A DNA stretch of 64,000 bases from Flavobacteriales bacterium (GCA_037443205.1 JBBIOU010000002.1:118849-182848); one strand, 5' to 3'; shown: positions 6,014 through 38,800, counted from the first letter of the stretch. Notes: generated from the sequence alone by a model not told the origin. Program-made: numbers and translations.

Positions 6014-6021
6014 TACCTTTG
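6014..6021 (+). promoter_or_regulatory. Bacteroidota -7 box (TAnnTTTG) upstream of pdxA
   Basis: TACCTTTG lies about 14 nt upstream of the ATG at 6035. No Shine-Dalgarno sequence is present, as is usual for this phylum. Coordinates are hand-derived. Confidence 0.45.
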
Positions 6022-6034
6022 TAAAAAAAATCAG

Positions 6035-18763: not shown

Positions 18764-18784
18764 GATGTTATAAATTTATTATTG

Positions 18785-20026
18785 TTAGTATTCTTTTACT
18801 ATGATATCATCAACCTCCCAGGTTTTAGCAACCGAAGTAGTTCCGGTATATTTAAATCCGATGCGTACGTTAGCTACTTTATATGCTGTTAAGGGGATGT
18901 CACCTGAGTTAACCCAGTTAAATCCACCGGAAGATAAGGTAACCGGTACGGCTATCCATGTAGCTGTATTGGGTGCGCTAACTCCATCGTAATTGGTAGA
19001 TATATAAACTTCCAAATTAGGTCCGCTGTAATTGGCTGCATTTAAAAAGTTAAAACCCGGTGTAGTAGAGTTACTTAAATCAATAGCGGGTGAAATTAAC
19101 CATGTTTCGCAACTGGCATCTCCACTGTTGTAGCTGCTTGCTTTGGCAAAATAATTTCCGTTAAATATAGAGCTTGTCCATGCACTTGTTCCGGCTACTT
19201 GCTTTACAATCCATCCTCCTGAACTAATGCTGTTATCCTCAAAATTTTTCTGTAAATAGATAGTTGCAGGATTGCCTGTACAACGCGGTGCGCTCATTTG
19301 TACTTCGGCTAAAGAACGAACGTATAATTGAATTGTGCTGTTAAATACGCCTACTATTGCCACCAAGCTGCCGTTGCCTTGCGGAATTTGTAATCCGGCA
19401 TAATTAGCGTAGCCGCTTGTTCTTACTATAACCGTATTGCCATTACAGTCTGTCAAAGTACGGTTGGCCGATTGCTGATTCGTTGCATTGGCCCAGGTAT
19501 TGGGTATTTCGTTGGTTACAAATTCTACATTTTCAAGTTTAATCAATCTTGATTGCATGGATGTGTTTATTTGATTTACATCTGTAATAACCATGGGAGA
19601 AACATTTTTTTGTACCGCTTGTTTGATGATGTTTTTGTTTACATCAACCGAATCTAATTGCAACATACCGTTGTAGGCAGAAAGCACAGTGCCTTTTAAA
19701 TAAATTCTTATTGAATCACCTTTATAAACACCCCCCGAAGTCATTAATCGTAAATTAATGGCACCGGTAGCGTCTTGAACAAAAATATTTTTATACAAAT
19801 TACCGTCTTGTTCGTCAGCGGTAACAGTAGCATAAACAGAATAATCGCTGGTAAAACGAACCGGTGTACCGGTAAAAAGATTTTTCAGACTGTCTATGCT
19901 AAGTATATGTCCAACGGGTATTTCGCGCGGTGGAGGAGCATCCCATTCTCTTTTACAAGAACTGATAAGAACCGTTAAAGCTAACAGTAAGTGTGAAAAA
20001 TATTGTATGTTTTTCATTTGTATCAT
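18785..20026 (-). CDS. Surface lipoprotein, DUF5689-like tandem-barrel module plus C-terminal choice-of-anchor-J-like jelly-roll; probable partner of the upstream TonB-dependent transporter
   Basis: The lipobox is VLISSC. The central segment reads YATVTADEQDGNLYKNIFVQDATGAINLRL..GDSIRIYLKG..YNGMLQL and ..QSRLIKLENVEF..VIVRTSGYANYAG..VGVFNSTIQLYVRS. The C-terminal part reads FEDNSISSGGW..ETWLISPAIDL..LEVYISTNYDG. The start lies 3 nt after the transporter's stop. Confidence 0.75.
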   Translation of the reverse strand: MIQMKNIQYFSHLLLALTVLISSCKREWDAPPPREIPVGHILSIDSLKNLFTGTPVRFTSDYSVYATVTADEQDGNLYKNIFVQDATGAINLRLMTSGGVYKGDSIRIYLKGTVLSAYNGMLQLDSVDVNKNIIKQAVQKNVSPMVITDVNQINTSMQSRLIKLENVEFVTNEIPNTWANATNQQSANRTLTDCNGNTVIVRTSGYANYAGLQIPQGNGSLVAIVGVFNSTIQLYVRSLAEVQMSAPRCTGNPATIYLQKNFEDNSISSGGWIVKQVAGTSAWTSSIFNGNYFAKASSYNSGDASCETWLISPAIDLSNSTTPGFNFLNAANYSGPNLEVYISTNYDGVSAPNTATWIAVPVTLSSGGFNWVNSGDIPLTAYKVANVRIGFKYTGTTSVAKTWEVDDIIVKEY

Positions 20027-20029
20027 TTT

Positions 20030-22579
20030 TTAAAATCTTAATCCAAGCATTAAAAAATAAGTAGTTCCTAAATGGTAGGTATATTTAGGAGGAAATTTAT
20101 TTACATCATTAGGGTCGAAACGCAGCTGTTCAAAACCTCCGGTGGCAAATGTTTTATTGTTAAGTAAATTATTTACTGAGATATTCAAATTTAAAAAATA
20201 TTGCTTTATTTTCCAGGATTTTCCGGCATAAAAATCTATTATATAAGCATTGCTTAATTTTTCCTGGCGTATGTTTTGGTTCCATTGCGGGTCTGTAGTA
20301 ACAAAATTAGCAAGTGCCTCTTCGGTTCTTCTGTCGGGGTTTGGTTCCAGGTAAATATTTGCATAGTAATTAAAATTTGCTCCTGCAAACCAGAATTTTT
20401 TTCCGCTGTATTTAACTCCTGCTGATGCAGCTGTTTGCGGCATATTTCCTAAGCGATAATTTTTTATATATACGGTTCTGTTTGCAAGTATTTCAGACGA
20501 ATTATCGCGGGTAATGGTTGCTGTTGGTCTGGAATTAAACAGGTGTTGCCCGTGCGCAAATACACCTATCAAAGTAAGCTGCTGGGTTAGGTTACCTTCT
20601 ATGCCTAATTCAATGCCTGTATGCAAAAAATCTACACCGTTCATAGTATAGTTTACTAAGTTTCTGTATTCTTCATGAAAGAAACTGCGGCTCCATAATT
20701 GGTCATTTATCTGAGTATAATACAGCGTAGCTCTGGTTTTAATGTTGGTATAGCGGGCAATATAATTTATATCGCCCGAAAGAATTTTTTCACTGGTTAA
20801 TCCGTCAATTAGGTTATCACGTGTACGCGGAGAAACGTAGGCTATACGAACTTGTGGCGGGCGCGTTAAATACATTCCGTTTATGGTAACATAATTACGG
20901 CCGTTTATTTTATAAGTAGCACCCATTTTTGCTCCATAATTCAAAAAGTTTTGTTTTTTGGAGGTTCCTGCCGAATTTTCCGGAAATTTGCCGTTTGCCC
21001 ATTCAGAAGTTCTCCAGAAAGCGGTTTGCGAAAGTTGAATGCCTGCATAAAACTCTAATTGTCCGATATTATATTCTAATTGCGAAAATGCTTCGTGTTG
21101 ATTTACCTGTATCGTATAATTATATCCAAATTTTTCGTTTTGTTTAATTATTTTATTGGGTGTACTTATATCGTTTTGTACTGCCGAACCATCCGAAGAA
21201 AGCTGCTCGGCAAATTGGTCAACATCCAACCAGTAATCGCCACCCAATAAATCATTTACTGTTTTAAAATATATACCTTGATGCTTAATACCGGTGTATC
21301 CGGCACTTAAATATAGCTTATCGTTTACTTTATTATTATAAATAATATTCCATCCTAATTGTTTCACATCACTGCGTTGCTCTTCTACAATATATTTAGA
21401 ACGCAAACCGGTAACATTGTTGCCGCTTATTCCGTTTGCATTAACCACAGTGTGTAAGTTATTGTAATTTGCATAATATAATTCATCCCAATTTATTTGT
21501 CTGGTATTTACATCGGTTTGCCAAAGTTCGGTAAGGCGTTGAGCTTCGGCCGGGTTGGTGAGAGCGTAATAACTGGGCAAATAACGATAATAATCTGGTC
21601 GGGGGTCTTTGGTATCATTCCAGTTCAGCGCTGTAATACCTCTTCGACCGAAATTATAATATAGGGATGATTGTAATTTAGATTTTTCGGATATTCTCCA
21701 TAAGTGTGTAAGCATAATAACCGGTGTATGATTTTTAGCTACACGGGCGCTGCGTTTTTTACCTTGTTGATAACCCCAAAAGGGATTGTAATAATTATTA
21801 CCTGCCAAATTGTAAGCCTCTTGTGTAGCAATTCCTTGCCGTGCTTGTGTTAATGGGGCTGCAAATACACTTAGGTTAATTGTATGATTTGTATTTATTT
21901 TTTTTTCAGCTGCTGCAAAATAGCTCCATGCTTCAAAATAAGTGCCTTCTACATAACCCTCATTGGCATAACGCATAGATCCAGAGAAACTAAAATTCCA
22001 GCCGTTTTTCATTTCTCCGGTGCTGGTGGTGTACATTACCCGATGATCGTAGCTTCGGTTTGATAAGGCATATGATATTTTATGCCCCTTTCGTATAGAT
22101 GAAGCACGGGTATTGATATTGGTATAACCTCCCGGACCGCCAAAATTAATTCTGCATGCACTTATGCCTGTGTGTATTTCCATATAACGGGTAACATCAT
22201 TTAAGCCTCCCCATGATGACCAACTGGCCCAACCCGTTTCTAAGTCATTAACTTTTACTCCGTTTATCATTATTATATTGTTTTCCGGATCATATCCACG
22301 GATACGAAAACGGGCATTACCAAAATTAAATCCGGCTGTTGATGTAAAAATATCGCGTGATGATTGCAATATGCCTGATATATCTTGTGCGTCTAAATCC
22401 GATTCGGCTTCTCCGGAATTTGAACTAAAAATTGGTATGCGAACCACATTGAGTGAGTCTTCTTTTAAAAGTGCATTTTGTGAGGTATCGTTTTCTTTAA
22501 ATGTAGTTTCAATTTTGTTTTGTGCACAAACATTAAAGTAAAATATCAATAAAAAAATAAGCGCTAAAAATTTATTCAT
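20030..22579 (-). CDS. TonB-dependent outer-membrane transporter (no SusD-like partner)
   Basis: The protein is 849 aa with a signal peptide. The plug region reads DISGILQSSRDIF..FRIRGYD..IMINGVKVNDLE. The rest has a long beta-barrel-like alternating pattern and ends in the terminal aromatic ..MLGLRF. Confidence 0.88.
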   Translation of the reverse strand: MNKFLALIFLLIFYFNVCAQNKIETTFKENDTSQNALLKEDSLNVVRIPIFSSNSGEAESDLDAQDISGILQSSRDIFTSTAGFNFGNARFRIRGYDPENNIIMINGVKVNDLETGWASWSSWGGLNDVTRYMEIHTGISACRINFGGPGGYTNINTRASSIRKGHKISYALSNRSYDHRVMYTTSTGEMKNGWNFSFSGSMRYANEGYVEGTYFEAWSYFAAAEKKINTNHTINLSVFAAPLTQARQGIATQEAYNLAGNNYYNPFWGYQQGKKRSARVAKNHTPVIMLTHLWRISEKSKLQSSLYYNFGRRGITALNWNDTKDPRPDYYRYLPSYYALTNPAEAQRLTELWQTDVNTRQINWDELYYANYNNLHTVVNANGISGNNVTGLRSKYIVEEQRSDVKQLGWNIIYNNKVNDKLYLSAGYTGIKHQGIYFKTVNDLLGGDYWLDVDQFAEQLSSDGSAVQNDISTPNKIIKQNEKFGYNYTIQVNQHEAFSQLEYNIGQLEFYAGIQLSQTAFWRTSEWANGKFPENSAGTSKKQNFLNYGAKMGATYKINGRNYVTINGMYLTRPPQVRIAYVSPRTRDNLIDGLTSEKILSGDINYIARYTNIKTRATLYYTQINDQLWSRSFFHEEYRNLVNYTMNGVDFLHTGIELGIEGNLTQQLTLIGVFAHGQHLFNSRPTATITRDNSSEILANRTVYIKNYRLGNMPQTAASAGVKYSGKKFWFAGANFNYYANIYLEPNPDRRTEEALANFVTTDPQWNQNIRQEKLSNAYIIDFYAGKSWKIKQYFLNLNISVNNLLNNKTFATGGFEQLRFDPNDVNKFPPKYTYHLGTTYFLMLGLRF

Positions 22580-22857
22580 AAATTATTATCAGCGCACAAA
22601 AGTATGATATTTATACTGATTATACTTTAAGGTTAAATACTTTTAATAATAAATTAATCCTTATTAAACAACAAAAAGTTTAACAAGATAGTTAAATTTT
22701 TTGCGAGACATATTAAAACATCTTTTATATTAAATCTGATTATGAGCCTATGCTAAGGATAATTGTAAAACTCCGGAATTAAATATAATTTAATAACTAA
22801 ATTTATTTATTGCGGAAAATAATTTGCGTAATTTGCATAAAATGTAAAATTGAGGTT

Positions 22858-23901
22858 ATGAGAAGTTTCGTGCTGTTAATATTTATGTGTTCTTACTTTT
22901 TGCAAGTATCGGCACAATTAGATAAAAACAAAAAGTACTTGGTTAGCTGTATAGCTTTTTATAATGTAGAAAATCTTTATGACACCATTGACTCACCAGG
23001 TGTTAACGACCATGAATTTACCCCCAACGGTCCCAACCAATGGAATACACTTAAATATTATAAAAAATTAGACCGTTTAGCAGAAGTAATTTCGCAGTTA
23101 GGAAGTGAAGCCACCCCTGACGGGCCGGCTGTAATCGGCTTATGCGAAGTTGAGAATCTTAATGTATTGGAAGACTTGGTTAAAACAGAAAAACTTAAAA
23201 AAAACAATTACCAAATAGTACACTATGACGGGCCTGACCATAGAGGAGTAGATGTGGCTTTACTCTACAATCCTAAATATTTTAAAGCTACCAACAGCAA
23301 ATCTTATACTCTTAAAATAAATGACGACACCACTTTTAAAACCAGAGATCAGTTGGTTGTATCGGGTATTTTTGACGGTGAACCCATGCATTTTATTGTT
23401 GCACACTGGCCATCGCGCAGGGGAGGACAAAAAGCCAGTAATCCCAAAAGAATAGAAGCTGGTAAACTGGGTCGAAAAATTATTGACTCTTTAATTGCTT
23501 TAAACGCTAACGCTAAAATTGCTTATATGGGCGATTTAAATGATGACCCGGTAAATGCAAGTGTAAAAGTGCACATTAATACTTCGGCCAAAATTGATAA
23601 AACTACGGGCAATAAATTATTTAATCCTATGGAAGAGCTTTTTAAAAAAGGTATAGGAACACTTGCCTGGAAAGACTCCTGGAATTTATTTGACCAAATA
23701 ATTATTACAGCACCTTTTGTTAAACAAACTTATGCTGACTGGCAATTTTACAAAGCCAAAGTTTTTAATAAGGATTTTGTTAAACAAGACGAGGGTAATT
23801 TTAAAGGGTATCCTTTTCGTACTTTTGCAGGCGGGCAATATACAGGCGGATACAGCGATCATTTTGCCGTTTATATATTACTAATGAAAGAAAAAAAATA
23901 A
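22858..23901 (+). CDS. Secreted endonuclease/exonuclease/phosphatase (EEP) family nuclease
   Basis: The signal peptide is MRSFVLLIFMCSYFLQVSAQ. I prefer the ATG at 22858 over the TTG at 22810 used by the track. The EEP motifs GLCEVEN, VAHWPSRRGG, GDLNDDP and YSDHFAV are present. Confidence 0.85.
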   Translation: MRSFVLLIFMCSYFLQVSAQLDKNKKYLVSCIAFYNVENLYDTIDSPGVNDHEFTPNGPNQWNTLKYYKKLDRLAEVISQLGSEATPDGPAVIGLCEVENLNVLEDLVKTEKLKKNNYQIVHYDGPDHRGVDVALLYNPKYFKATNSKSYTLKINDDTTFKTRDQLVVSGIFDGEPMHFIVAHWPSRRGGQKASNPKRIEAGKLGRKIIDSLIALNANAKIAYMGDLNDDPVNASVKVHINTSAKIDKTTGNKLFNPMEELFKKGIGTLAWKDSWNLFDQIIITAPFVKQTYADWQFYKAKVFNKDFVKQDEGNFKGYPFRTFAGGQYTGGYSDHFAVYILLMKEKK

Positions 23902-26081
23902 TGTTATTTAGAAACCTCTTTACTTCTCTCTTTACACTCATAACAGTTTGCGCCTTATCGCAAGCTGTATTGCCCACCGCACATTCTTTTGACGGAAGTC
24001 CCTTGCCTGTGGGCTGGACATTAAACCTGAATATTGCACAAAACGGAATAACTTATACCTCCGGCAGCGATTCTTCACCCTCATGCCGTTTGGATGCCAG
24101 CGGAGAATACGTGCAAATACACTATGCTACACAAGCAGGAGCATTATCCTATTACATTCGTTCAACCGGTATAAACCCCGTAGTAGCTAACGGAACTCTT
24201 TTTCACCTGCAGGAATCAGTAAACGGTATAACATGGACTAACATTCGACAATTTGATGTAAGTAATTTAACCGGTAGTTTTGTTCAGTTTACCGATCAGC
24301 CCGCTGCAGCTTCCAGATACATTCGTTTTTATTATACCAACAAAGCCTCCGGAAGCAACATAGCACTCGATCAGATTCTTTTGCAGGAAGCTGCTCCCGG
24401 CCCAAATGCCGCTATAAAAGTTAAATATAACACACAAACTCTTCTCAACGGAGGAACAGTTTTTATTGGCAATAGTTCTACTCATATTTTTACAATTGAA
24501 AATAACGGCACCGCACAAACCCTAAATATAAACTCATACAACATTAGTGGTTTACATGCATCTGATTTTATCATCAGTGGCATGCCCGCTAACATCAGCC
24601 CCCAGACAAACGCCAATTTTACCCTTACTTTTACTGCCGGTGCTAACGGATCGCGTTACTCTACCATTACCATTAACAACAACGATAGCCAAAACGACCC
24701 ATTTATAATTTATATCAATGCAATTGGAGGGACTTTGGCCAGCGAGCCTCTTACACAACCATCCAACCTTTCGTTTACAAATATCAAAGCATATACATTT
24801 AACGTAAATTTTAATGCCGCTTCACCTTCACCCGATGGATACCTTGTGTTATGGAAAAAAGATTTACCGGTTACAGAAATACCCACAGACGGAGTTTCAT
24901 ACAATATTGGCGACCAAATTGGTCAGGCAAAAGTTGCCTATGTTGGTAATGCAAATACATTTATACCCAGACACGTGGTTGCCAACAGCAATTATTATTT
25001 TAAAATATTTAGTTATAATGGTTCATCAGGATTTGAAAACTATTTAACTGCCAATGCTTTGTCGGGACAGGTTTTAAGCAGCGGACAAAACATCGGTAAT
25101 TATTACAACGGTATTAACAGAAATAATCTGAATCTGGTAAGTCAATTAACTAATAAAATCAATCCACACACACAAATATATTATGGCAGCTATAGCAACA
25201 CTATTGTTGATAATTTTGAAAGCTACGACACTTCGCAAGGCAGAAAAGTTTTGCCTTGTTTATATTCTAATTACCGCTACGTTTATAACGAACCTTTTGT
25301 TTATGATACGATGAGCAGAGAACATGTTTTTGCTCACAGTTGGTTTCCTACAAATCCTGCCCAGAATAATATAGAGTATTCCGATTTATTTAATCTTTTT
25401 CCTGCTAAACTACAAAATGTTAATATGGTAAGAAGCAACTATCCGTTTGGAATAGTAGTTAATACAACCTATCAATATATGGATGGTAAACTTGGTCAGG
25501 ATATTAACGGAAATACAGTTTATGAACCCGCCAATCATATTAAAGGAAATGTTGCCCGTGCAATATTTTACATGCTTACCTGCTATAACGGAACCGGTGG
25601 CGCATGGAATTTACCAACTTTTCAAAATCAACAAATACTTAAAACCTGGCACCAGCAAGACCCTCCAGACAACTATGAAATAGCCCGCAATGAATATATT
25701 TATGCTTTACAAGGAAACCGAAACCCTTTTATTGACAGTGCAGTTTTTGCCTGCTTTATTGACTTTAGTACCATGAGCAAAATCACTAATCCTCCCGCAA
25801 GTTGCTTGCTGCTAAACTCCCCCGAAATAACTAAGGAATCTTATTTTCATATTTATCCTAACCCGAGCAGCGATATATTAAATATATACACAGCCAACAT
25901 AAATGCTTATCAAAATACCGAATGTGTTATATTTGATATTTACGGAAAACTAATTTATACAACAAATATAACGAATCAACATACCTTGTTGGATTTAAGT
26001 TTAATCCCCGAAGGATTGTACATTTTACAGTTAGCGTCTGACCATTTGCTGCATGCAGAAAAAATAATAATTGCGCGCTAA
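23901..26081 (+). CDS. Endonuclease I family nuclease with N-terminal jelly-roll, Ig-like (choice-of-anchor-D-like) and Fn3-like domains and a type-A T9SS C-terminal domain
   Basis: The endonuclease I motifs are SREHVFAHSWFP, SDLFNLFPA..N..RSNYPFG, KGNVARAIFYM and GNRNPFID. The C-terminus IYPNPSSDILNIY..IFDIYGKLIY..PEGLYILQL is a Por_Secre_tail. The start overlaps the upstream stop (TAATG). Confidence 0.88.
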   Translation: MLFRNLFTSLFTLITVCALSQAVLPTAHSFDGSPLPVGWTLNLNIAQNGITYTSGSDSSPSCRLDASGEYVQIHYATQAGALSYYIRSTGINPVVANGTLFHLQESVNGITWTNIRQFDVSNLTGSFVQFTDQPAAASRYIRFYYTNKASGSNIALDQILLQEAAPGPNAAIKVKYNTQTLLNGGTVFIGNSSTHIFTIENNGTAQTLNINSYNISGLHASDFIISGMPANISPQTNANFTLTFTAGANGSRYSTITINNNDSQNDPFIIYINAIGGTLASEPLTQPSNLSFTNIKAYTFNVNFNAASPSPDGYLVLWKKDLPVTEIPTDGVSYNIGDQIGQAKVAYVGNANTFIPRHVVANSNYYFKIFSYNGSSGFENYLTANALSGQVLSSGQNIGNYYNGINRNNLNLVSQLTNKINPHTQIYYGSYSNTIVDNFESYDTSQGRKVLPCLYSNYRYVYNEPFVYDTMSREHVFAHSWFPTNPAQNNIEYSDLFNLFPAKLQNVNMVRSNYPFGIVVNTTYQYMDGKLGQDINGNTVYEPANHIKGNVARAIFYMLTCYNGTGGAWNLPTFQNQQILKTWHQQDPPDNYEIARNEYIYALQGNRNPFIDSAVFACFIDFSTMSKITNPPASCLLLNSPEITKESYFHIYPNPSSDILNIYTANINAYQNTECVIFDIYGKLIYTTNITNQHTLLDLSLIPEGLYILQLASDHLLHAEKIIIAR

Positions 26082-26237
26082 TTTCCTTTATCGGTAAATA
26101 TCCATTTGCAAATCATATCCATCTTTCATGTTTTAATATTCATACTTATTAATAACGATTTAAGTTCTTTTATTTATGTAACGGATTTTAAATAATGCAA
26201 CAGGTTGATTTTAGTAAAATAATGTTACTTTAGCGTT

Positions 26238-27014
26238 ATGAAGCTTAGATCTATTATCATAGATGATGAAGAACCCGCAAGGGAAAATTTAAAAATTTTG
26301 CTGGAGGATTTTTGTCCCGAAATACAACTGATTGGAATGGCCGATAATATTGTTTCAGCAAAAAAAATGATTCAGGAATTAAAGCCCGAAGTTATATTTT
26401 TAGATATAAGAATGCCTTCGGGACTGGAAGGATTTGAATTGCTCGAAAGTTTACCCGACAAAAATTTTATGGTAGTTTTTGTTACAGCCTTTAAAGAATA
26501 TGCCATTAAAGCGTTTAATGCGAATGCGATACACTACATTTTAAAACCCATTGACATAGAAGAATTAAAAACAGCCGTTAAAAAAATACTTCAATGGAAA
26601 GAAAATATAAAAACAAACCCCGAAAACCTGAATATATATCTTGATGCACTAAAAAATTTATCAGAAAATTTAATTCATAAAAAAAACACCGGAAAAATTA
26701 CCATCAGCCATTCCAAAGGAATAAAAATTGTAAATGACGATGATATAATACACATCAATGCAGACAGCAATTATTCAGTAATACATTTTAAGGACGGCTC
26801 GCATTTTTTTGACACGCGCACCCTGGGAGTTTATGAAGAAATATTAAACCCGAACAAGTTTTTCCGAACTCATAAATCACACATCATTAATTTAAATGAG
26901 TTAGTCGAATATCAAACCGAACACTCTCCCATAGCCATACTGAAAAACGGACATAAAATACCTGTAGCACGCAACCGCATACAAGAATTTGTAGCCAAAA
27001 TCAAATCTTTATAG
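26238..27014 (+). CDS. LytTR-family response regulator (paralogue 1)
   Basis: The receiver domain reads IIIDDE..VIFLDIRMP..ILKP. The C-terminal LytTR domain reads FFRTHKSHIINLNEL..IPVARN. Confidence 0.92.
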   Translation: MKLRSIIIDDEEPARENLKILLEDFCPEIQLIGMADNIVSAKKMIQELKPEVIFLDIRMPSGLEGFELLESLPDKNFMVVFVTAFKEYAIKAFNANAIHYILKPIDIEELKTAVKKILQWKENIKTNPENLNIYLDALKNLSENLIHKKNTGKITISHSKGIKIVNDDDIIHINADSNYSVIHFKDGSHFFDTRTLGVYEEILNPNKFFRTHKSHIINLNELVEYQTEHSPIAILKNGHKIPVARNRIQEFVAKIKSL

Positions 27015-27020
27015 CAAACA

Positions 27021-27051
27021 GTTCGCTCAAAAAAACATACATTTCGCTAAA
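27021..27051 (+). promoter_or_regulatory. Imperfect direct repeat with 21-bp period; candidate LytTR operator
   Basis: GTTCGCTCAAA starts at about 27021 and TTTCGCTAAAC at about 27042, with 8 of 11 positions identical. Start-to-start distance is 21 bp. The pair lies 60-90 bp upstream of the ATG at 27113. Confidence 0.3.
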
Positions 27052-27112
27052 CGGCATATTTATTCTTAAATAAAGAGCGTATTATTGCTTAAATTAAAAA
27101 ACCCATTACCTT

Positions 27113-27871
27113 ATGAAACTAAAATCGATAGTGGTAGATGACGAGTATAATGCTCGCAACAACCTGAAAATGATTCTGGAAGATTTTTGCCCCGAAGTAG
27201 AAGTAGTGGGCATTGCCGAATCAACTGATAAAGCAAGGTCTTTAATCAAACAATTATCGCCCGATTTAGTTTTTTTAGATATCAAAATGCCTAAAGAAGA
27301 TGGCTTTGCATTTTTAGAAAGCATGCCCGACCGAAATTTTTCGGTTGTATTTACTACCGCACATAGCGAATTTGCACTGAAAGCTTTTAAAGCCAACGCA
27401 TTAGATTATATCGAAAAACCTATCAATATTGAAGACTTAAAAAATGCAGTAAATAAAGTAATGCTCTATCATGTAGGAAAATTAAACATAGATAACGACT
27501 TACCTGCTGCCGGTAAAGAAGAAAAAAATACCCAAATAAGTAAAGACCGAATATCACTCGCAACACGAGACGGTTTTACCATGGTTAAAAACGAAGAAAT
27601 AATTCATTTAGAAGCAAGCGATAATTACACCATGATATACATGACCGATAACAGGAGATTTTTAAGCTGTAAAAACATAAAAGTGTATGAAGAATCGCTA
27701 AATAAAGAAGTGTTTTTCAGGGTACATAAATCACATATTATTAATATTGCACATCATTTAAAAGGTTTTACACGAAACGAAGGAAATATTGCATTACTTT
27801 CAAACAATAAACAAATACCGGTTGCAAGAAGAAAGTTGCAAGACTTTCTGCAGCGTATTAACACCATCTAA
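27113..27871 (+). CDS. LytTR-family response regulator (paralogue 2)
   Basis: The receiver domain reads IVVDDE..LVFLDIKMP..IEKP. The LytTR domain reads FFRVHKSHIINIAH..IPVARR. It is clearly paralogous to the upstream gene along its whole length. Confidence 0.92.
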   Translation: MKLKSIVVDDEYNARNNLKMILEDFCPEVEVVGIAESTDKARSLIKQLSPDLVFLDIKMPKEDGFAFLESMPDRNFSVVFTTAHSEFALKAFKANALDYIEKPINIEDLKNAVNKVMLYHVGKLNIDNDLPAAGKEEKNTQISKDRISLATRDGFTMVKNEEIIHLEASDNYTMIYMTDNRRFLSCKNIKVYEESLNKEVFFRVHKSHIINIAHHLKGFTRNEGNIALLSNNKQIPVARRKLQDFLQRINTI

Positions 27872-27872
27872 T

Positions 27873-30800
27873 ATGCTGAAATACCTCCTTAAAAGCCTGA
27901 CCATATCAGGCTTTTTACTTTTAACTTTCTGCATACGGGCACAACAATATACCTTTATTAATTTTTCTACCGAACACGGTTTACCACAATCGCAGGTAAC
28001 AGCCCTGTGCCAGGATAACAGCGGTTATTTATGGTTTGCTACCCTGGGTGGTGTTAGCCGGTTTGACGGCATAGAGTTTTTAAATTTCTCTAATAAAGAC
28101 GGTTTAATAGACAATCAAAGCTACTCTTTATTCATTGACAGCAAACAAAAAATCTACATAGGCTCTGTAGGCGGATACAGCGTATATGACGGCAAAGGCT
28201 TTACTCCTGTTAAATTACCCCAACTCTACAATACTTCAAACATTTCGGCTTTTACCGAAGACGATTTAAAAAACATCTGGTTTGTAACCGAAAATATGGG
28301 CGTAGGAAAAATAAGCCCCAACGGTCAAATATCTTTTTATGACGAAAAAAAAGGATTAAACAGTAATACTCGAACCATATACTTTGACAATAATAAACAA
28401 TTATGGGTAGGCACCCGTTATGGATTATTTTTATTTGATAAAAACAAAGACCATTTTAGCCCGGTAAATATAAACGGAGTGCCCGACCGAAACATCAGCT
28501 ATATTACCCGGGATAAATACAATAATATATGGGTGGCCACCGTTGACGAAGGGGTTTATGTAAAACACCATAACACCTGGATAAACTTTGACGAAACAAA
28601 CGGATTAATCAGTAATCAAATCAGAAGTATTACCGTATGCTCCGATTCATCCATTTGGTTTTCATCCCGCTTAGGCATCAGCATATTTAAAAACAATTCT
28701 TTCAATAACATAAATACCGATAAAGGATTAACTCACTCAAACATCAGATATATAGGCGAAGACAACGAAAAAAATATTTGGATATGTACAGACGGTAAAG
28801 GAATATACAAATTTGCCGGGGAAGCATTTGTTACATATACGGTTAAAACCGGTTTAAGCAGCGATTTTGTAATGTCGCTGGTTGAAGATGCTGATAAAAA
28901 CCTTTGGTTTTCCACATACGACAAAGGCGTATGCAAATACAATGGCACAAATATTATATGTTTTGACGACTCAAAATATTTATCTAACAATACTGTTTGG
29001 ACAAGCACCAGAGATGCCGAAAATAATTTATGGTTTGGAACATCTATAGGCCTAAACAAATATGACGGTAAAAAATTTTATATTTATACCGATGATGACG
29101 GCCTGTTATCCAATAAAATCACCGCACTTTATGCAGATAATGAAAACTTATGGATTGGCACCCAAAACGGATTGAACAGATTTTATAAAGGAACCTTTAG
29201 CTCCTGTCTTAATCAAAACGGGCCTAATCCTGACAACATCAGAAATATTTATAAAGATAAACAAGGTGTTTTATGGCTGGCATCTTCTAACGGTTTGTAC
29301 GCTTACAACGGCAAAACATTTAAACAATACAAACCCTTTCCCGAAAATTCTGACAACACCCTGTATTGCATTAAACCCGCATTAAAACAAGGCTTATGGG
29401 TTGGAACTAAATCAGGATTATTTTATTTTAACAACTCCCGGTTTGAACCCGTAGTATTTAGCGATGGAGTTAGCTCTAATTATATTAATTTTCTACTGAA
29501 CGACTATATTTATTTATGGATTGGTACCAATAACGGCATCTACAGATTAAATCAACAAAAATATTTTGAAGAAGCCATCATAGAGATTAAAAACTTTACC
29601 CGCGATGAAGGTGTACCGGGAATGGAAACAAATATGAATGCAGCTTATAAAGACTCTCGCGGGTATTTATGGTTTGGCACAGACAAAGGATTGGTGCGCT
29701 TTAATGCAGATAAGGAAAAAAAATACGATGCTTTGATAAAACCCTATATTCATATTGATGATGTGAGATTATACTTTGAAAAAGCCGACTGGAAAAATTA
29801 CACGGATGTATTTGATGAGAACACAGGACTACCTCTTGACCCGAAAGTTAATTATAAAAAAAACCATTTTACTTTTTACTATACAGGCATCAGCCATACC
29901 AATCCGAAAAAATTAAAATACCGTTTTAAATTAGAAGGCTTCGACCCCGACTGGTCGCCCGAAACCGATGCACGCTTTATAACCTATTCTAACCTGCCTT
30001 ATGGCAGTTATACCTTTATGGTAAAAGCAAAAAATGAACAAGGCATTTGGTCGCATACCGCAACATTTGCTTTTACAATTAAAGCCCCGTTTTGGCTAAC
30101 CTGGTGGTTTATTGTTATGTGTTCAATACTTGTATTATTTCTGATTATCTTTTTATACAACATACGGCTAAAAGAAATTAAAAGAAAAAACGAACGGCAA
30201 CAACTTATCTATCAATCGCGCCTGCTCGAATTAGAACAACAAGCATTAAACGCCAGTATGAACAGGCATTTTATATTTAATGCGCTTAATTCCATACAAT
30301 ATTACATCAATAAACAAGACCGCTTAGAAGCCAATCGCTATTTAACCAGTTTTGCCAAGTTAATCCGAAAAAATCTGGATAGTTCTGCATCGGGTCAAAT
30401 GGTTTCGCTGTCAGAAGAACTTGAACGCCTGGAACTATACATATCCCTCGAAAACATGCGTTTTAAAAATAAATTTACCTACCAAATTAATATACAAAAT
30501 GATATTGATACCCAAAACGTGAAAATACCACCCATGCTTTTACAACCTTATGTAGAAAACAGCATTTGGCATGGCATATTACCCCTCGAACAACCCGGAC
30601 ACATTCAGCTTAACATAAATTCGTTACCCGATGGTTCTATCAAATTTGCGATTGAAGATAATGGCATTGGAATAGAAACCAGCCTGATGGAAAAAAACAA
30701 AACCAAAAACAATCACATCTCCAGAGGTATTGAAATTACCAGTGGCCGGCTGGTAGTATTGAAAAAAATATTAAACGAAGAAATAATAATTAATGGCCCG

Positions 30801-30890
30801 TTTGAACTTAAAAATAACCTTGGTTTGGCTTGTGGCACAAGAGTAGAGATTATTATCCCTCAACCAAAACGACCTTTCCCAAAGATTTAA
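27873..30890 (+). CDS. Sensor histidine kinase: periplasmic two-component-regulator beta-propeller repeats plus Y_Y_Y-like domain, one TM helix, LytS/YehU-type kinase core
   Basis: I prefer the ATG at 27873 (MLKYLLKSLTISGFLLLTFCIRAQ) over the track start at 27789; it lies 1 nt after the paralogue-2 stop. Many repeats follow the pattern G(L)..N.I..I..D..G.lW(fv)GT..Gl..y. A TM segment reads WWFIVMCSILVLFLIIFLY. The kinase core reads MNRHFIFNALNSIQYYI, followed by PPMLLQPYVENSIWHGI and DNGIGI. Confidence 0.9.
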   Translation: MLKYLLKSLTISGFLLLTFCIRAQQYTFINFSTEHGLPQSQVTALCQDNSGYLWFATLGGVSRFDGIEFLNFSNKDGLIDNQSYSLFIDSKQKIYIGSVGGYSVYDGKGFTPVKLPQLYNTSNISAFTEDDLKNIWFVTENMGVGKISPNGQISFYDEKKGLNSNTRTIYFDNNKQLWVGTRYGLFLFDKNKDHFSPVNINGVPDRNISYITRDKYNNIWVATVDEGVYVKHHNTWINFDETNGLISNQIRSITVCSDSSIWFSSRLGISIFKNNSFNNINTDKGLTHSNIRYIGEDNEKNIWICTDGKGIYKFAGEAFVTYTVKTGLSSDFVMSLVEDADKNLWFSTYDKGVCKYNGTNIICFDDSKYLSNNTVWTSTRDAENNLWFGTSIGLNKYDGKKFYIYTDDDGLLSNKITALYADNENLWIGTQNGLNRFYKGTFSSCLNQNGPNPDNIRNIYKDKQGVLWLASSNGLYAYNGKTFKQYKPFPENSDNTLYCIKPALKQGLWVGTKSGLFYFNNSRFEPVVFSDGVSSNYINFLLNDYIYLWIGTNNGIYRLNQQKYFEEAIIEIKNFTRDEGVPGMETNMNAAYKDSRGYLWFGTDKGLVRFNADKEKKYDALIKPYIHIDDVRLYFEKADWKNYTDVFDENTGLPLDPKVNYKKNHFTFYYTGISHTNPKKLKYRFKLEGFDPDWSPETDARFITYSNLPYGSYTFMVKAKNEQGIWSHTATFAFTIKAPFWLTWWFIVMCSILVLFLIIFLYNIRLKEIKRKNERQQLIYQSRLLELEQQALNASMNRHFIFNALNSIQYYINKQDRLEANRYLTSFAKLIRKNLDSSASGQMVSLSEELERLELYISLENMRFKNKFTYQINIQNDIDTQNVKIPPMLLQPYVENSIWHGILPLEQPGHIQLNINSLPDGSIKFAIEDNGIGIETSLMEKNKTKNNHISRGIEITSGRLVVLKKILNEEIIINGPFELKNNLGLACGTRVEIIIPQPKRPFPKI

Positions 30891-30900
30891 CAAAAAACCT

Positions 30901-30955
30901 TTGTTAATAAATAACATTTTATTACTTTTGACCGTATAATTAGATTGTTAATAAA
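30901..30955 (+). promoter_or_regulatory. Exact 11-bp direct repeat (TTGTTAATAAA x2) bracketing a -7 box (TACTTTTG at about 30923-30930)
   Basis: The copies lie at about 30901-30911 and 30945-30955, 44 bp apart. The second ends about 8 nt before the ATG at 30963. Confidence 0.35.
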
Positions 30956-30962
30956 ATTATAG

Positions 30963-31199
30963 ATGAAAAAGGTTTTTCAAATATTTATGATAGTGGGGTT
31001 TATGATAGCTTTTGCATCTTGTTCGAAAGATTACAACGGACCTATAGACCCTGTTACAGGCTTACCTTCTAATTCTATTAAAGGCTCGGAAAATAATAAT
31101 AACACAAGCAACGAATCCGATACCTCCAACGGCATTACCGATGGCGGAGAATCATCTGATTGGTACGGGCCTGACGGCAAAAAGAAGAAAAAACCCTGA
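30963..31199 (+). CDS. Small low-complexity lipoprotein (78 aa)
   Basis: The signal peptide carries the lipobox AFASC. The mature part of about 58 aa is rich in N, S, D and G and ends in a KKKKKP tail. A terminator follows. Confidence 0.6.
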   Translation: MKKVFQIFMIVGFMIAFASCSKDYNGPIDPVTGLPSNSIKGSENNNNTSNESDTSNGITDGGESSDWYGPDGKKKKKP

Positions 31200-31220
31200 T
31201 TTTTAATAATAATTCTTTCA

Positions 31221-31250
31221 AAAAAGCCCCGAATAAATCCGGGGTTTTTT
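31221..31250 (+). terminator. Rho-independent terminator
   Basis: AAAAAGCCCCG-aataaatc-CGGGGTTTTTT follows the stop at 31199. Confidence 0.65.
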
Positions 31251-31334
31251 AATGCCTTATAGCAAAAAAACATGTCTGGCTGATGAACAATAAACCCAAA
31301 TTTAGCATTATAAATTTGAAATAAATCCAAATTT

Positions 31335-31400
31335 TCCGCCATAGGCGGACTCAGTGTGTTGAGTGTCGTGTGGGTTTGGGTTATCCGCCATCAGGCGAAC
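31335..31400. other. GC-rich structured island with three CCGCC/GGCGG elements (candidate small RNA or regulatory structure)
   Basis: The sequence is TCCGCC-ata-GGCGGA, then a GT-rich tract of about 34 nt, then TCCGCC-atca-GGCGA. It sits in an otherwise AT-rich 512-bp non-coding gap. Confidence 0.3.
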
Positions 31401-31711
31401 ATTAAGCATGCTAATGCGTAATGTGGGATAAAGCAATCTTTACCGCTTAGCGATCATAATAGTAGCCCCAAATAAGTCTAATGATTATTTTAGGTTATTA
31501 ATTTTATACATGTCTAATTACAATATTTTTTCTATATTTATGTATAGTTTTAGTAAGAATTGTTTGTATTTTTTATTATTTTTATGTTGGCTCATTCACT
31601 GCTTTTGTAACGCATTCTTTAGATATACAAGCGATTAAAGGAGTATATAAAAATAGTTGATGAGTGTATTGATTACAATTTAAATAAAAATAATTTTTTT
31701 AAATTTTATAC

Positions 31712-33259
31712 ATGTCCAACACTGCTTCCGACCAATTGCATAAGTTAATAAAAGCCCTTACACGACCCGAAAAACGGTATTTTAAAATTTATACTAAACG
31801 CTATTTTGCTGATTCTGACAATAACTACCAGCGATTGTTTGATGCCATTGATAAAATGGATGTTTATGATGAGCAGCAACTCAAGAAAAAGTTTCATAAC
31901 GAATTGTTTATGAATCAATTAAGTATATCCAAGGCACGTTTATACGACCAGATTTTAAAAAGCCTTAATAGCTTTCATGCCAATAGCTCGATAGATGCTC
32001 AACTAAAAAAACTTCTTCATAGCGCAGAAATACTCTATAAAAAAACTCTTTATAACCAATGTCATAAACTACTTAAAACTGCTCGCAAACTTGCCATTAA
32101 ATACGAAAAGCACACCACCTTACTTGAAGTATTAACCTGGGAAAAAAAACTTATTGAAAAAGATAATTATACCGAAGTAAATGAAGAAGAACTTGAAAAA
32201 ATTTTAGAGCAAGACCGTCTGACATTAGAAAAGATAAAAAATTTTTCGGAATTCTGGCACATAAAAAGCCGCTTATTTTATATACTTAACCGAAAAGGCA
32301 AAGCACGAAACGCAAATGAACTTTCGGGCTTTAAATCAATTATTGATAACGTTTTATTAAACAGCGAAAGTGCAGCACTGTATTTTGAAACCAAATACCT
32401 GTATCACCACATTTACAGTGCTTTTTATTTTGGTATTGACGATTACGAAAACAGCTACAAACATCTAAAAAGAAATGTAGAACTGATTGAAGAGAACATA
32501 GAATTATTTAAAGAGGAACCCAACACCTATTTTTCGGTATTAACAAATGCCATATATGTTGGTACGCGCATAAAAAAATACCCCGAGGCCTTTGCTTATC
32601 TTAAAAAATTGCGCGAATTACCCGAAAAACTGACACTTAACCGAAACGAAGATTTAGACATTAAGCTTTTTTCCAGTTCTTTTAGCATTGAAACCACCAT
32701 GTATATTATACTTGGTGAATTTGAAAAAGGTATCAAACTGGTACCAATTATTGAAGAAGGATTTAAATTATATGGCGACCGCATCAATATTGTTCGCAAA
32801 GCATACCTGTATTTTAATATTGCAGTATTATATTTAGGAGAAAAAAATTATTCTGAAGCCATACGCTGGATCAACAAACTACTCAATGATATAGATATTG
32901 ATAAATCGCAGGATTTGTACTGTTTTGCTCAATTGCTTAATTTAATTATACACCTGGAACTTGATAACCGGCAACTGGTTCCTTATGCTCTGGCCTCTAC
33001 CGAACGATACCTCAAATCCAGAAACAGAGTATATAAATTTGAAACCGTAATTTTAAACTTTATAAAGAAAATATCTAAAATACGCGACCTGCAAAAAGCT
33101 GATGAAATATATGCCAAATTGCTGCAAGAAATAAATATATTAACAACCGATAACTTTGAAAAAACCGCTTTAGAGTATTTTGACTTTTTATCGTGGGCAG
33201 AAAGTAAGGTTTATAAAAAAGACTTTAAAGAATTGGTTCGTAAAAAAGCAGGAATTTAA
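31712..33259 (+). CDS. Hypothetical all-helical (TPR-like) cytoplasmic protein
   Basis: The protein is 515 aa with no signal peptide. It is rich in K, E and L, with repeated helical hairpin-like segments. I recognise no catalytic motif. Confidence 0.65.
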   Translation: MSNTASDQLHKLIKALTRPEKRYFKIYTKRYFADSDNNYQRLFDAIDKMDVYDEQQLKKKFHNELFMNQLSISKARLYDQILKSLNSFHANSSIDAQLKKLLHSAEILYKKTLYNQCHKLLKTARKLAIKYEKHTTLLEVLTWEKKLIEKDNYTEVNEEELEKILEQDRLTLEKIKNFSEFWHIKSRLFYILNRKGKARNANELSGFKSIIDNVLLNSESAALYFETKYLYHHIYSAFYFGIDDYENSYKHLKRNVELIEENIELFKEEPNTYFSVLTNAIYVGTRIKKYPEAFAYLKKLRELPEKLTLNRNEDLDIKLFSSSFSIETTMYIILGEFEKGIKLVPIIEEGFKLYGDRINIVRKAYLYFNIAVLYLGEKNYSEAIRWINKLLNDIDIDKSQDLYCFAQLLNLIIHLELDNRQLVPYALASTERYLKSRNRVYKFETVILNFIKKISKIRDLQKADEIYAKLLQEINILTTDNFEKTALEYFDFLSWAESKVYKKDFKELVRKKAGI

Positions 33260-35806: not shown

Positions 35807-38800
35807 TTAAATTTTAACGCCTATCACGCATACGTCATCAATTTGTTCTAAATCGCCTTTCCATTCTTCAAACATAAAATCGAGCATTTGTTTTTGTATA
35901 TGCATGGGTTTTTCGTGATTATCCAACAACAATTGCCTGAAGTTGCTGTATTTTAATTTTTTTCCTTTAGGGCCGCCAAATTGATCGGCATAACCATCAC
36001 TAAATAAATATAGTTTATCGTTGGCGTATAGTTGTAATTCTTTATTGGTAAATTTAAATTCGTTTTCGCCCACAAAATTGCCTATGGGTTGTTTATCGGC
36101 ATTTATTTCTAATACTTCATTATTGCGTATTATAAAAATAGGATTATTGGCTCCTGCGTATTCCAGGGTATTTTTTTGCAAATCAATGCAGCAAACGGAT
36201 ATATCCATGCCATCGCGTATTTTGGAATCTTCGGCACGTTGTTTTAAGGTCTTTGAAATAATTTTGTTTAACTGATTAAGTATTTCTGCGGGTTGGGTAA
36301 TATGGTATTCATTTACTATTTGATTCAATCCGTTAAATCCTATGATGCTCATAAATGCGCCCGGCACTCCATGTCCGGTGCAATCAACAACGGCAAATAA
36401 TATTTTATTGTCTTTTCGTTCAATCCAATAAAAGTCACCGCTCACAATATCTTTGGGTTTATAAAGCACAAAGGCATTTTTTAGGTGCGATGTTACTACT
36501 TCTTCGGGGGGCAAAATGGCTTGTTGTATTCGTTTAGCGTAAATGATGCTGTCGGTAATATGTTTGTTTTTTTCTTCGATAATTTCTTTTTGTTTTACTA
36601 CCTCGGCTGTTCTTTCGCGCACTTTTTCTTCCAGGTTTAAATAAAGCTTAGCATTTTCGAGCGCTATGCCAACCGATACAGATAGGTTTCTGAGTATATC
36701 TAAATGATACTCGGTGTAAGCGTTGGGTTGATAGCTTTGCACGGTAATAACTCCGATTATTTTTTCTTTGCTGTAAACCGGCAAATAAATAATGGATGAT
36801 GAATCTTTACCCGAAACGGCTTTTTTAATTCCTTTAAGATATTTGGAGTATTCTTCAAAATAATTATTGATGAATAATTCTTGCTGGTTTTTAAAACAGA
36901 TTACAGCCAGTCTTTCATCATCAATATTATAAGAAAAGTCTTCCATGCGAACGCCATTCTCTATAAAACCCGGCATTAGTATTGAGCGCGAATCTTCATC
37001 ATAAATACCAATACCAAACATGGTTGCATCCATCAGATTATTTACGTTTTCATATACTTTTTCTACGATGCTTTCTATAGTCAGACATGAGGTAATATCT
37101 TTTCCTATTTGGCTTAACAGGCGTGTATTTTGATAGGCTTTTTCTATTTCTGCCGTGCGTTCGGCAACTCGCTCTTCCATTTTTTCGTAGAGCGATGCGT
37201 TTTCGAGCGCACTGGCAATATATAATGAAAGGTTACGAATAACATTCAGGTGGTATTCATTATAGGCGTTTTTACGGAAACTTTGTACTGTAATTACACC
37301 AATGCATTTATTTTTAGTGATTAGGGGCAAGTAAATCATAGACTCGGGCATTTCGCCAGCCTGTGCCGTGTAGTTTTTTTGGACATACCTGATGTATTCC
37401 TCTTCCCAGTTATTGATTATTATTTCTTGTTTATTTAAGAAACATCGTGTGGCAATTTTATCATCATTCAAAGAAATATTAAAAGGGTTTAATTTTACGC
37501 CTTTTTCTATGGCTCCTTCATAATACAAATCATTATTATCGGGTCGGTATATGGCTATTCCAAATGTAGTAGCATCCATCAGGTTATTTACGTTGCTGTA
37601 TGCATTTTGTATAATTTCTTCGACTGAAAGTAAGGCAGAAATTTCTTTACCTATTTTACTGAGTAGTTTAGTGTTTTCGTATGTTTTTTGTATTTCTTCT
37701 TTTTGTTTTACTACTTCGATCGTACGTTCTTCTATAGTGTGTTCCAAACCTTTCAGTATAGCAATGTTTTCGAGTGCTATGGCTGTATAGGATGCAAGTG
37801 TTCGTAAAATATCTAAATGATATGTCGTATAGGCATTTTTTTCAAATGCCTGTGCAGAAATAACTCCTATAATTTTTTCGCCTACCATCATGGGGCAAAA
37901 AATAAGCGATTCGGGTAAATCGCCCTTTACCACTACAATTTTATTGGTATATTTTTTATATTCGTTTTGATGGTCATTAATAAATATTTCTTTTTTATGT
38001 GTAACACACCATACCGAATAATTATCAATGTCGTTCATTGAGACGGTTATTGGTGGCAAACGTTGTCCTTTTTCTATGGTATATTTGTACTCAATTGTAT
38101 TTTCTTCGGAGTTGTATATTCTGATGGAGAAACAGGTTGCATCCATCAGTTCGTTTACATTTTTTTGCAGCTTTTCAAAAATGTCTTCCAAATCGTGCGA
38201 TGATATGATTTCTTGTCCTATTTCGCTTAATAAACGGGTGTTATTATATGTTTTTTCTATTTCTTCTTTTTGTTTGATTACCTCTTTGGTGCGATTAACA
38301 ACTTCTTGTTCTACGCTTTTATACAGGTTTGCGTTTTCTATGGCTGTTGAGGCATATAAGGCAAGGTTTCTGAGTATATTGAGATGATATTCGTTATAAG
38401 CATTTTTATTAAAACTCTGTACGGAAATGGTGCCTATAACTTTATTTTTAGCCATTAACGGAATGTATAATATTGACTCGGGTGATTCGCCAATTATGGC
38501 GTCAGAGTCAGTGTGGCAATAATTTTTGTATTCTTTTTGATAATCGTTAATATGTATTTCGCGGGCATTTTTTACACACCAAACGGCTAATTTGTCATTA
38601 TCATCCAATGAAAAAGAAAAATCAGGAAGTTTTTCACCCTTTTCCATTGCTCCTTTTATTTCCAGGGTGTTATATTCTTCGTTAATAATTCCTACGCCTA
38701 TGATAGATGCATCCATGAGGTCGTTGACTTTGTCGTATATTTTTTCGATAACTTTTTGAATGGATAGGTCTGAGGTTAGTTCTCTTCCTATTTGGCTTAG

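Follow-up and report, generated by a model that had tools for sequence, protein, structure and literature searches.

Does a tiny lipoprotein gene that lies directly behind a sensor kinase gene encode a partner of that kinase, a signal that the kinase perceives, or one more product under its control? The question is raised by a signalling island in a Flavobacteriales bacterium (GCA_037443205.1 JBBIOU010000002.1:118849-182848), analysed here as a stretch of 64,000 nt; we refer to this full stretch as the window, and all coordinates are counted from its first letter. The island comprises two response-regulator genes (regulator 1, RR1, and regulator 2, RR2), a sensor histidine kinase gene and a mini-lipoprotein gene, with protein lengths given in amino acids (aa):

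26238-27014, plus strand: RR1, 258 aa, receiver (REC) and LytTR domains by Pfam, less conserved paralogue clade
27113-27871, plus strand: RR2, 252 aa, REC and LytTR domains by Pfam, more conserved paralogue clade
27873-30890, plus strand: sensor histidine kinase, 1005 aa, identified by Pfam, motifs and solved-structure matches
30963-31199, plus strand: mini-lipoprotein gene, 78 aa (59 aa mature), unnamed family

An initial annotation, made from the sequence alone, had described these genes and likened them to a peptide-pheromone circuit. All four proved to be real and to lie where it had placed them: RR1 and RR2 are separated by 98 nt (27015-27112), and the TAA stop codon of RR2 (27869-27871) is followed by a single nucleotide and then by the kinase ATG at 27873, as had been described. 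Proteins identical to those of the window were found on JGI, NCBI and Logan metagenome contigs, which, with the labels of related kinases given below, points to an uncultured member of Bacteroidota as the source. Rfam gave no RNA family in or near the island. We propose, holding the idea to be about evenly poised between right and wrong, that the island is a conserved Bacteroidota module in which a branched two-component system has a kinase that works with a dedicated mini-lipoprotein partner.

The mini-lipoprotein gene accompanies one clade of kinases

When metagenomes were scanned with an alignment of 22 kinase orthologues, 80 loci were recovered, in which open reading frames (ORFs) were called and searched with purpose-built hidden Markov models (HMMs); individual loci, from this and other searches, carry L numbers here. 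Linkage was counted at loci that encode a LytS-class core, have a LytTR regulator upstream and extend at least 400 bp downstream; a member of the lipoprotein family was scored if it lay no more than 300 bp downstream of the kinase gene, on the same strand. In these loci, where the regulator gene precedes the kinase gene, the HMM found a family member behind the kinase in 20 of 28 cases, and a diverged member in L101 with three IVGGGDGDRDGG repeats, which was missed by the HMM and found by eye, brings the count to 21/28. Where the kinase gene precedes the regulator gene (loci mostly of ≤30% identity), the count was 0/16. A genome scan with the single kinase returned only relatives of ≤35% identity, almost all in the kinase-then-regulator order, and served as a negative control: none of these 80 distant loci has a family member beside the kinase. 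Away from the kinase-adjacent position, the HMM gave one weak stray match (E = 0.004) across ~1.2 Mb, to an unrelated ORF that L086 shares with its duplicate, L087, and within the window its single match was the lipoprotein gene itself. A metagenome scan based on the lipoprotein gave 130 matched stretches, none of which was confirmed by tblastn.

The lipoprotein gene is present in the window, L005, L086, L088, L089, L090, L091, L092, L093 and L094, with kinases that are 33-76% identical (identity to the kinase of the window is 76% in L005, 53-54% in L086, L088 and L089, with L088 at 54%, and 45% in L090). Two of three distant family members that we looked up are adjacent to a kinase, one in L093 and the other in L094, where it lies beside a kinase C-terminus 41% identical to that of the window. 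The order RR1, RR2, kinase, lipoprotein (75-104 aa as called) and a gene of ~520 aa is common to L086, L088, L089 and L090, and L092, which was fetched via its lipoprotein homologue, has the same layout; the outer flanks of these loci are very dissimilar. The combination of one kinase with two LytTR regulators is likewise a stable arrangement, recurring in 12 loci. Conservation of the small gene beside the kinase across relatives, which the initial annotation had put forward as a check on its proposal, is therefore strongly confirmed among kinases that are only 33-76% identical. The pairing has outlasted both deep divergence and repeated turnover of the flanks, and this speaks for a link in function rather than for an inherited gene order.

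The 78-aa ORF encodes a lipoprotein of an unnamed family

At the start of the 78-aa product stand the n-region MKK, a hydrophobic core and then the lipobox F-A-S-C, so that the mature protein begins with C-S-K-D; it continues with a low-complexity middle rich in acidic residues, Asn and Ser, followed by the conserved motif GITDGGESSDWY and, at the end, a KKKKKP tail. Behind the L005 kinase, at the same position, a word-indexed search located a homologue of 77 aa that is 62% identical, and pairwise dN/dS (the ratio of nonsynonymous to synonymous substitution rates) for the lipoprotein is 0.15-0.24, with synonymous sites saturated. Given homologues at the same position and these dN/dS values, we conclude that the ORF is a lipoprotein gene under purifying selection, in agreement with its earlier description as a secreted low-complexity lipoprotein.

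A profile search of 1.84 billion cluster representatives returned 114 members at E ≤ 1e-3, nearly all of 68-130 aa, and those that were inspected are lipoproteins in which I-T-D-(G/P)-x-D/E-rich motifs occur one to three times. Features of the family are a lipobox Cys, invariant in 40 members, with x-K-(D/E) after it, a DETG patch, an acidic low-complexity middle, GITDGG(H/E)xSD(Y/W) and a Lys-rich tail. Beyond signal-peptide noise, the window protein and these 40 members matched no model of Pfam or NCBIfam. Calcium-binding repeats (TSP3, EF-hand, RTX) were also sought in the 40 members with Pfam and gave noise only, the EF-hand_5 match in one member having E = 0.26; because of this, the idea that the family binds a cation derives from its composition. 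An AlphaFold monomer model built from the family alignment contains the signal helix only, the 59 mature residues forming a low-confidence coil (predicted local distance difference test score, pLDDT, ~50-65), and the mature lipoprotein is accordingly predicted to be intrinsically disordered.

Motif variants were seen in two branches of the family. One branch (L091, 11064-11447; L101, 10157-10516; L102, L103 and L143) has two to three tandem copies of I(I/V)GGGD(G/D)D(R/H)DGG instead of GITDGG, and another (L100, L105, L116 and L123) carries ISDDGDDLGDKERS. From these sequences, motif type appears to track kinase lineage.

An antisense ORF of 103 aa (31031-31342, minus strand) overlaps the lipoprotein gene and its terminator, and on L001 the JGI pipeline called this ORF instead of the lipoprotein gene. 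It is probably spurious as a gene: the longest antisense ORF of the nearest relative, L005, is 57 aa.

The kinase joins a propeller sensor to a LytS-class core

Pfam matches of the kinase were to Reg_prop (2e-47), Y_Y_Y (7e-20) and His_kinase PF06580 (3.1e-19, residues 788-868), with a weak match to HATPase_c (0.0026) that lies below the Pfam cut-off; no 5TMR_LYT, HisKA, Response_reg or HTH_AraC match was found in the kinase with Pfam. The protein has an N-terminal signal or anchor, a periplasmic double beta-propeller and Y_Y_Y domain (~23-740), a single internal transmembrane (TM) segment (~741-763) and a LytS-class core. The core contains H799 in HFIFN, an N-box ENSIWH at 895 and a G1 box DNGIG at 929, all of them invariant in the 22 orthologues. 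Among solved structures, the sensor matched 4A2L (8.5e-52), which we take to be BT4663, 3V9F (6.4e-46, across residues 26-743) and 3VA6, with values ranging from 8.5e-52 to 7.8e-32, and the kinase core matched 6SWJ (5.3e-14). The large periplasmic propeller/Y_Y_Y sensor and LytS/YehU-type core claimed for this kinase are thus both upheld by the Pfam matches, and so is the accompanying caveat that the sensor is of a glycan-sensing type, as its best solved-structure matches are periplasmic domains of the BT4663 class.

At E ≤ 1e-50 the kinase has 4829 homologues, named 'two-component regulator propeller domain-containing protein' or 'histidine kinase', and related kinases are labelled as coming from Bacteroidota or Flavobacteriales metagenome-assembled genomes. 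An identical kinase is annotated 'streptogramin lyase' by JGI, a mis-transfer from the propeller fold. The best NCBIfam match of the sensor is to PorZ, a type IX secretion system (T9SS) protein, at 3.8e-25, below the cut-off; PorZ shares the double-propeller architecture.

Two regulator clades lie upstream of the kinase

Both regulators pass the Pfam cut-offs for Response_reg and LytTR (RR1, 1.9e-19 and 3.3e-18; RR2, 7.4e-22 and 1.5e-16), and their best NCBIfam matches are BtsR and LytR, both below cut-off. RR1 and RR2 of the window are 43% identical, consistent with the tandem paralogues that the initial annotation had recognised, and identity is unevenly spread: 63% in the first 35 residues, where helix alpha-1 is expected, 55% in the receiver, 41% in LytTR and 10% in the linkers. 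In a tree built from the regulators of these loci, RR1 and RR2 sequences fall into two cleanly separated clades. RR2 of the window is 92% identical to that of L005, and RR1 78%; for the orthologues in L086, L088, L089 and L092, the corresponding ranges are 74-78% and 57-63%. dN/dS for RR1 is 0.03-0.06. The two clades show fixed differences in a segment of LytTR (DTR-L versus SCKNI), and the receiver residues DDE, D, T and K are intact in both (in RR1, the D in FLDIRMP). On the evidence of the tree, the two regulators are ancient paralogue clades.

In loci with a single regulator, the lone regulator is RR1-like in 10 cases and RR2-like in ~6, so that either clade can be the only neighbour of the kinase. 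Because the receiver residues are intact in both clades and each clade can be the sole neighbour, we infer that this kinase family has both paralogues as its cognate partners, in which case the two-regulator loci would run a branched pathway.

A conserved repeat, candidate promoters and a terminator suggest autoregulation

The following elements were found around the four genes; promoter and binding functions are putative:

26226-26233, plus strand: -7-like promoter box of RR1, TACTTTAG, one mismatch to TAnnTTTG, implying a very short leader
27018-27051, plus strand: LytTR-type direct repeat ACAGTTCGCTCAA-N8-ACATTTCGCTAAA in the RR1-RR2 spacer, 21 bp from start to start, candidate binding site
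27080-27087, plus strand: -7-like box of RR2, TATTATTG, ~30 bp downstream of the direct repeat
30900-30930, plus strand: candidate promoter of the lipoprotein gene, TTTG (30900-30903), 19 nt, TACTTTTG (30923-30930)
31227-31250, plus strand: intrinsic terminator, CCCCG-loop-CGGGG stem at 31227-31244 and T-run at 31245-31250

LytTR boxes in agr-type promoters have the same geometry as the direct repeat, with a 21-bp period (~9 bp plus a 12-bp spacer). The pattern ACNKTT-N3-T at a 21-bp period has one exact match in the window against 0.18 expected; with one mismatch allowed, the search of the window stays at the level of chance (5 found, 3.5 expected). The same kind of repeat occurs at the same position in 12/12 two-regulator loci and also before the RR2-like regulator of L093, with the consensus AC(A/C)GTTCAATCAA. 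Two of the repeat copies in L139 are identical, and L097 and L139 have a possible third copy.

The Bacteroidetes -33/-7 promoter consensus is TTTG ... TAnnTTTG, which the putative lipoprotein promoter fits, and the TAnnTTTG box is kept in the kinase-lipoprotein spacers of L005, L086, L088, L089, L090, L092 and L093. A box TATTTTAG stands at the equivalent place before RR1 in L005, L086, L088, L089 and L092. A scan with the sigma-70 consensus found 21 matches against 27 expected, the consensus being uninformative for this phylum. In each orthologous locus that was read (L005, L086, L088, L089, L090, L092 and L093), the lipoprotein gene has a hairpin and T-run behind it, and there is no terminator between RR1 and RR2, nor between the kinase and lipoprotein genes. 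No LytTR repeat was found in the kinase-lipoprotein spacer. The separate promoter and terminator that had been assigned to the lipoprotein gene are therefore present in the sequence and conserved in orthologues, with the former still a putative promoter.

Given the conserved repeat before RR2, the absence of an internal terminator and the conserved terminator at the end, the simplest reading is that RR2, the kinase and the lipoprotein would form one autoregulated transcription unit, with extra constitutive promoters for RR1 and the lipoprotein gene.

Comparison with known signalling systems

The island shares with the LytS/LytR class (LytSR, BtsSR/YehUT, YpdAB) a PF06580 core with an HFxFN box, a GHKL ATPase and REC-LytTR regulators. 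It differs from that class in having a periplasmic double propeller and Y_Y_Y domain (~720 residues) instead of the 5TM-Lyt membrane sensor, two regulators rather than one, and a dedicated lipoprotein gene behind the kinase. The sensor itself has the architecture of those of BT4663, BT3049 and BT4673 of Bacteroides, which consist of two seven-bladed propellers and Y_Y_Y, and the BT4663 propellers bind disaccharides (PMC5121618). However, those are hybrid systems, whereas the kinase here has no fused HisKA, receiver or AraC domain and would pass its output through separate LytTR regulators; nor is a SusC/SusD polysaccharide-utilisation locus conserved beside it.

Lipoproteins of the QseG and LpqB type contact the extracytoplasmic domain of a kinase and set its activity (PMC6075780, PMC12691602, PMC5845573). 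QseG, whose gene lies between qseE and qseF, exerts its effect on QseE in the periplasm (PMC6075780, PMC12691602), and LpqB is encoded after mtrA-mtrB and lowers the activity of MtrB (PMC5845573). As in QseE-QseG-QseF and MtrA-MtrB-LpqB, the lipoprotein gene here lies in the unit of the kinase, and mtrA-mtrB-lpqB has the same order of regulator, kinase and lipoprotein. The proteins themselves have no sequence similarity: the mature partner here has ~59 residues, predicted to be disordered, with a short acidic motif and a basic tail, and the window lipoprotein and 40 family members gave no Pfam or NCBIfam family match that would indicate QseG or LpqB homology. Judged by analogy, these accessory-lipoprotein systems appear to fit best as the closest functional counterpart.

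The resemblance to a peptide-pheromone circuit proposed in the initial annotation stands in part. The island has in common with plnABCD, agr and comCDE its LytTR regulators, direct repeats ~21 bp apart before an operon that is autoregulated in those systems and probably here, and a small exported product in the unit, and with pln also the use of two regulators with one kinase. The class of kinase, the type of precursor and the exporter and processing genes do not fit. The kinase here belongs to PF06580 and has a periplasmic sensor and one internal TM segment, whereas AgrC, ComD and PlnB are multi-pass receptors of the HPK10 type; the precursor here has a lipoprotein signal peptide, whereas theirs have a double-glycine or AgrD-type leader. 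No double-glycine leader was found, and no AgrB-like, C39-ABC exporter or protease genes recur in at least 20 neighbourhoods.

A model for the module and its alternatives

We suggest that the kinase would phosphorylate both regulators, and that a regulator so phosphorylated would bind the 21-bp-period repeat in the RR1-RR2 spacer. Binding would raise transcription of RR2, the kinase and, by read-through, the lipoprotein gene up to the shared terminator, with the lipoprotein gene also driven by its own housekeeping-type promoter. Within the envelope, the lipoprotein would partner the periplasmic sensor, on which its conserved motif might dock as a co-sensor, a tethered pseudo-ligand or a feedback modulator. 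Its Asp/Gly-rich motif may bind a cation, and candidates for the external signal are an anionic glycan, or an envelope or ionic cue. A gene of the BT2802/RusR family, described below, would be a frequent but dispensable companion. A more specific proposal, which we regard as quite doubtful, is that the lipoprotein family is a new class of tethered disordered ligands or co-sensors for propeller kinases, with the acidic GITDGG/IVGGGDxDxDGG motif docking on the propeller. Were this so, docking might depend on a cation or mimic an anionic glycan, and the cell would read its envelope or ionic state; or, were the protein exposed on the surface and shed, Bacteroidota would have in it their first peptide-based self-signalling circuit.

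Several points weigh against a dedicated partner in a branched pathway. No small ORF was detectable downstream of the kinase in L099 and L109, whose kinases are 35-40% identical. The lipoprotein gene has its own consensus promoter, so that co-regulation with the kinase is not required. The mature start C-S-K-D lacks one acidic residue of the K-(D/E)2 signal for surface export, and in Capnocytophaga canimorsus K-D by itself works poorly as such a signal (PMC5080379); to the extent that C-S-K-D resembles such a weak Bacteroidetes signal, the protein might face outward, where it could not touch a periplasmic sensor unless released. Branched phosphotransfer rests on gene order and conserved residues. 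Adjacency to the kinase, taken alone, would also fit a regulated output gene, and one family member, P0154 (L095, L096), is not beside a kinase.

In one alternative, which is possible but in our view rather unlikely, the two-component system perceives an envelope or nutrient cue unaided and the lipoprotein is a co-transcribed output: an effector such as a cation-binding or surface-modifying envelope protein, or a negative-feedback product with no direct contact to the sensor. The family member away from kinases would fit this. Its position at the 3' end of a putatively autoregulated unit, with no terminator before it, means that induction would raise its level; outside the short motif its sequence evolves fast, and the number of Asp-rich repeats differs among members, many of which have between one and three, a pattern that a bulk role in ion binding or at the surface would lead one to expect. 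However, adjacency to one kinase clade (21/28 versus 0/16), maintained despite divergence and flank turnover, is stronger than is usual for a single member of a regulon, and the gene has its own housekeeping-type promoter in a spacer that lacks a LytTR repeat. The small product, or a motif fragment released from it, could instead be sensed by the propeller kinase, with positive feedback through the LytTR regulators in the manner of a pheromone. Two such regulators sharing a kinase as in pln, the 21-bp-period repeat before the operon, and a small gene in the same unit as the kinase, which would make induction self-reinforcing, are all consistent with such a circuit. So is the greater variability of the small protein compared with the kinase (identities of 64% and 76%, respectively, for the window and L005), a trait also of pherotype systems. 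In contrast, the PF06580 kinase with its periplasmic sensor and one internal TM segment is not a polytopic HPK10 receptor, a product with a lipoprotein signal peptide stays lipid-anchored, and the neighbourhoods lack recurring double-glycine leader, AgrB-like or C39-ABC exporter genes. Any released fragment must still cross the outer membrane of the recipient, and the promoter of the small gene is of a constitutive type. We consider a pheromone-like circuit very unlikely, and the lipoprotein more likely to be a helper of the kinase than a pheromone.

A further proposal, compatible with the others, concerns the targets of the island: it would control the nuclease and TonB-receptor locus that lies upstream of it and, together with the RusR-like protein, form a circuit for scavenging nucleic acid and ribose. 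In the window, the module does sit between the nuclease cluster and the BT2802/RusR-family gene, and RusR, the prototype of that family in Bacteroides thetaiotaomicron, is a candidate activator that is required for expression to be induced by ribose (bioRxiv 10.1101/574913). However, contigs of the window's own species (L001-L004) are the only ones seen with the nuclease locus beside the module. The L005 contig starts 171 bp before RR1 and is uninformative for the upstream flank; in the other relatives with an upstream flank that was read, the genes there encode DXP synthase, TIR/AAA proteins, glycosyltransferases or a housekeeping exodeoxyribonuclease III, and in none of them is the nuclease locus next to the module. 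In addition, no copy of the LytTR-type repeat was found in the nuclease promoter region (22580-22809), and there is no second exact copy elsewhere in the window. The earlier suggestion that the island could control the nuclease locus thus finds no comparative support, and we give it little credence, though it may hold as a lineage-specific link.

Database annotation of the components is generic, but three things appear not to have been described before: the family of lipoproteins, the way in which it is linked to this clade of kinases, and the conserved, putatively autoregulatory repeat. A full-text literature search found no experimentally studied propeller/Y_Y_Y-LytS kinase with LytTR regulators. 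The class numbers thousands of members in Bacteroidota, as the kinase homologues counted above indicate, and this locus offers three handles on it: an operator-like repeat, an anciently split pair of regulators that probably share a kinase, and an unnamed family of mini-lipoproteins. If the lipoprotein is a co-sensor, the accessory-lipoprotein principle known from QseG and LpqB would extend to Bacteroidota with a much smaller, disordered partner, and short ORFs, often skipped or mis-stranded by gene callers, could be integral to signalling systems.

Genes and sequence elements flanking the module

Outside the four genes, the following features were found:

17417-26081, upstream of the island: nuclease locus, five genes
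31503-31517, plus strand: near-palindrome TTTATACATGTCTAA, core TTAnACATGTnTAA, 195 bp upstream of the BT2802-family gene
31705-31719: second near-palindrome copy, overlapping the start codon of the BT2802-family gene
31712-33259, plus strand: BT2802/RusR-family protein, 515 aa, all-helical, one weak TPR-like match

The BT2802/RusR-family gene, which is recurrently linked downstream, was absent from the initial annotation's account of the island. It matched NCBIfam NF058569 at 8.7e-66 with 223 bits (cut-off 550) over profile positions 4-501 of 502, which makes it a distant member of the family, and such a match does not imply a ribose role for the window gene. A gene of this family lies behind the lipoprotein gene in 11/22 loci with enough flank, including loci with a single regulator, and the window protein is 72% identical to its L088 orthologue, versus 54% for the kinase. 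It had no sequence match in the Protein Data Bank, and a single-sequence AlphaFold model had a mean pLDDT of 50.6. In L086, a second BT2802-family paralogue (4601-6148) lies directly upstream of RR1, so that the module is flanked by two such genes.

The near-palindrome is present in all seven orthologous spacers, both ~200 bp upstream and across the start codon, and a block of 20 nt around it is identical between the window and L005 in an otherwise diverged spacer. By sequence, the two copies look like an operator pair. From the terminator of the lipoprotein gene to the near-palindrome, the spacer in the window is ~190 bp longer than in L005, and the extra stretch (within ~31255-31480) is richer in G+C than the sequence around it and contains the hairpin-forming words CCGCCATAGGCGG and TCCGCCATCAGGCG. 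Rfam gave no match to it, and it recurs nowhere else in the window.

The nuclease locus encodes a T9SS-sorted protein with an ExeM/NucH-like domain, a choice-of-anchor J/M949_1556-family lipoprotein (DUF5689), an 849-aa TonB-plug outer-membrane protein, an Exo_endo_phos_3 nuclease and a T9SS-sorted Endonuclease I (Endonuclease_1), and looks like a set for scavenging extracellular nucleic acid. The Exo_endo_phos neighbour of the module in L091 was rejected as a secreted nuclease, being a housekeeping ExoIII. Further downstream of the module, on the minus strand (35807-41047), lies a gene for a 1746-aa protein that is TPR-like at its N-terminus, has many GAF domains in tandem and carries a SpoIIE/PP2C phosphatase domain at its C-terminus; at the same position, L005 has a shorter version of 1365 aa.

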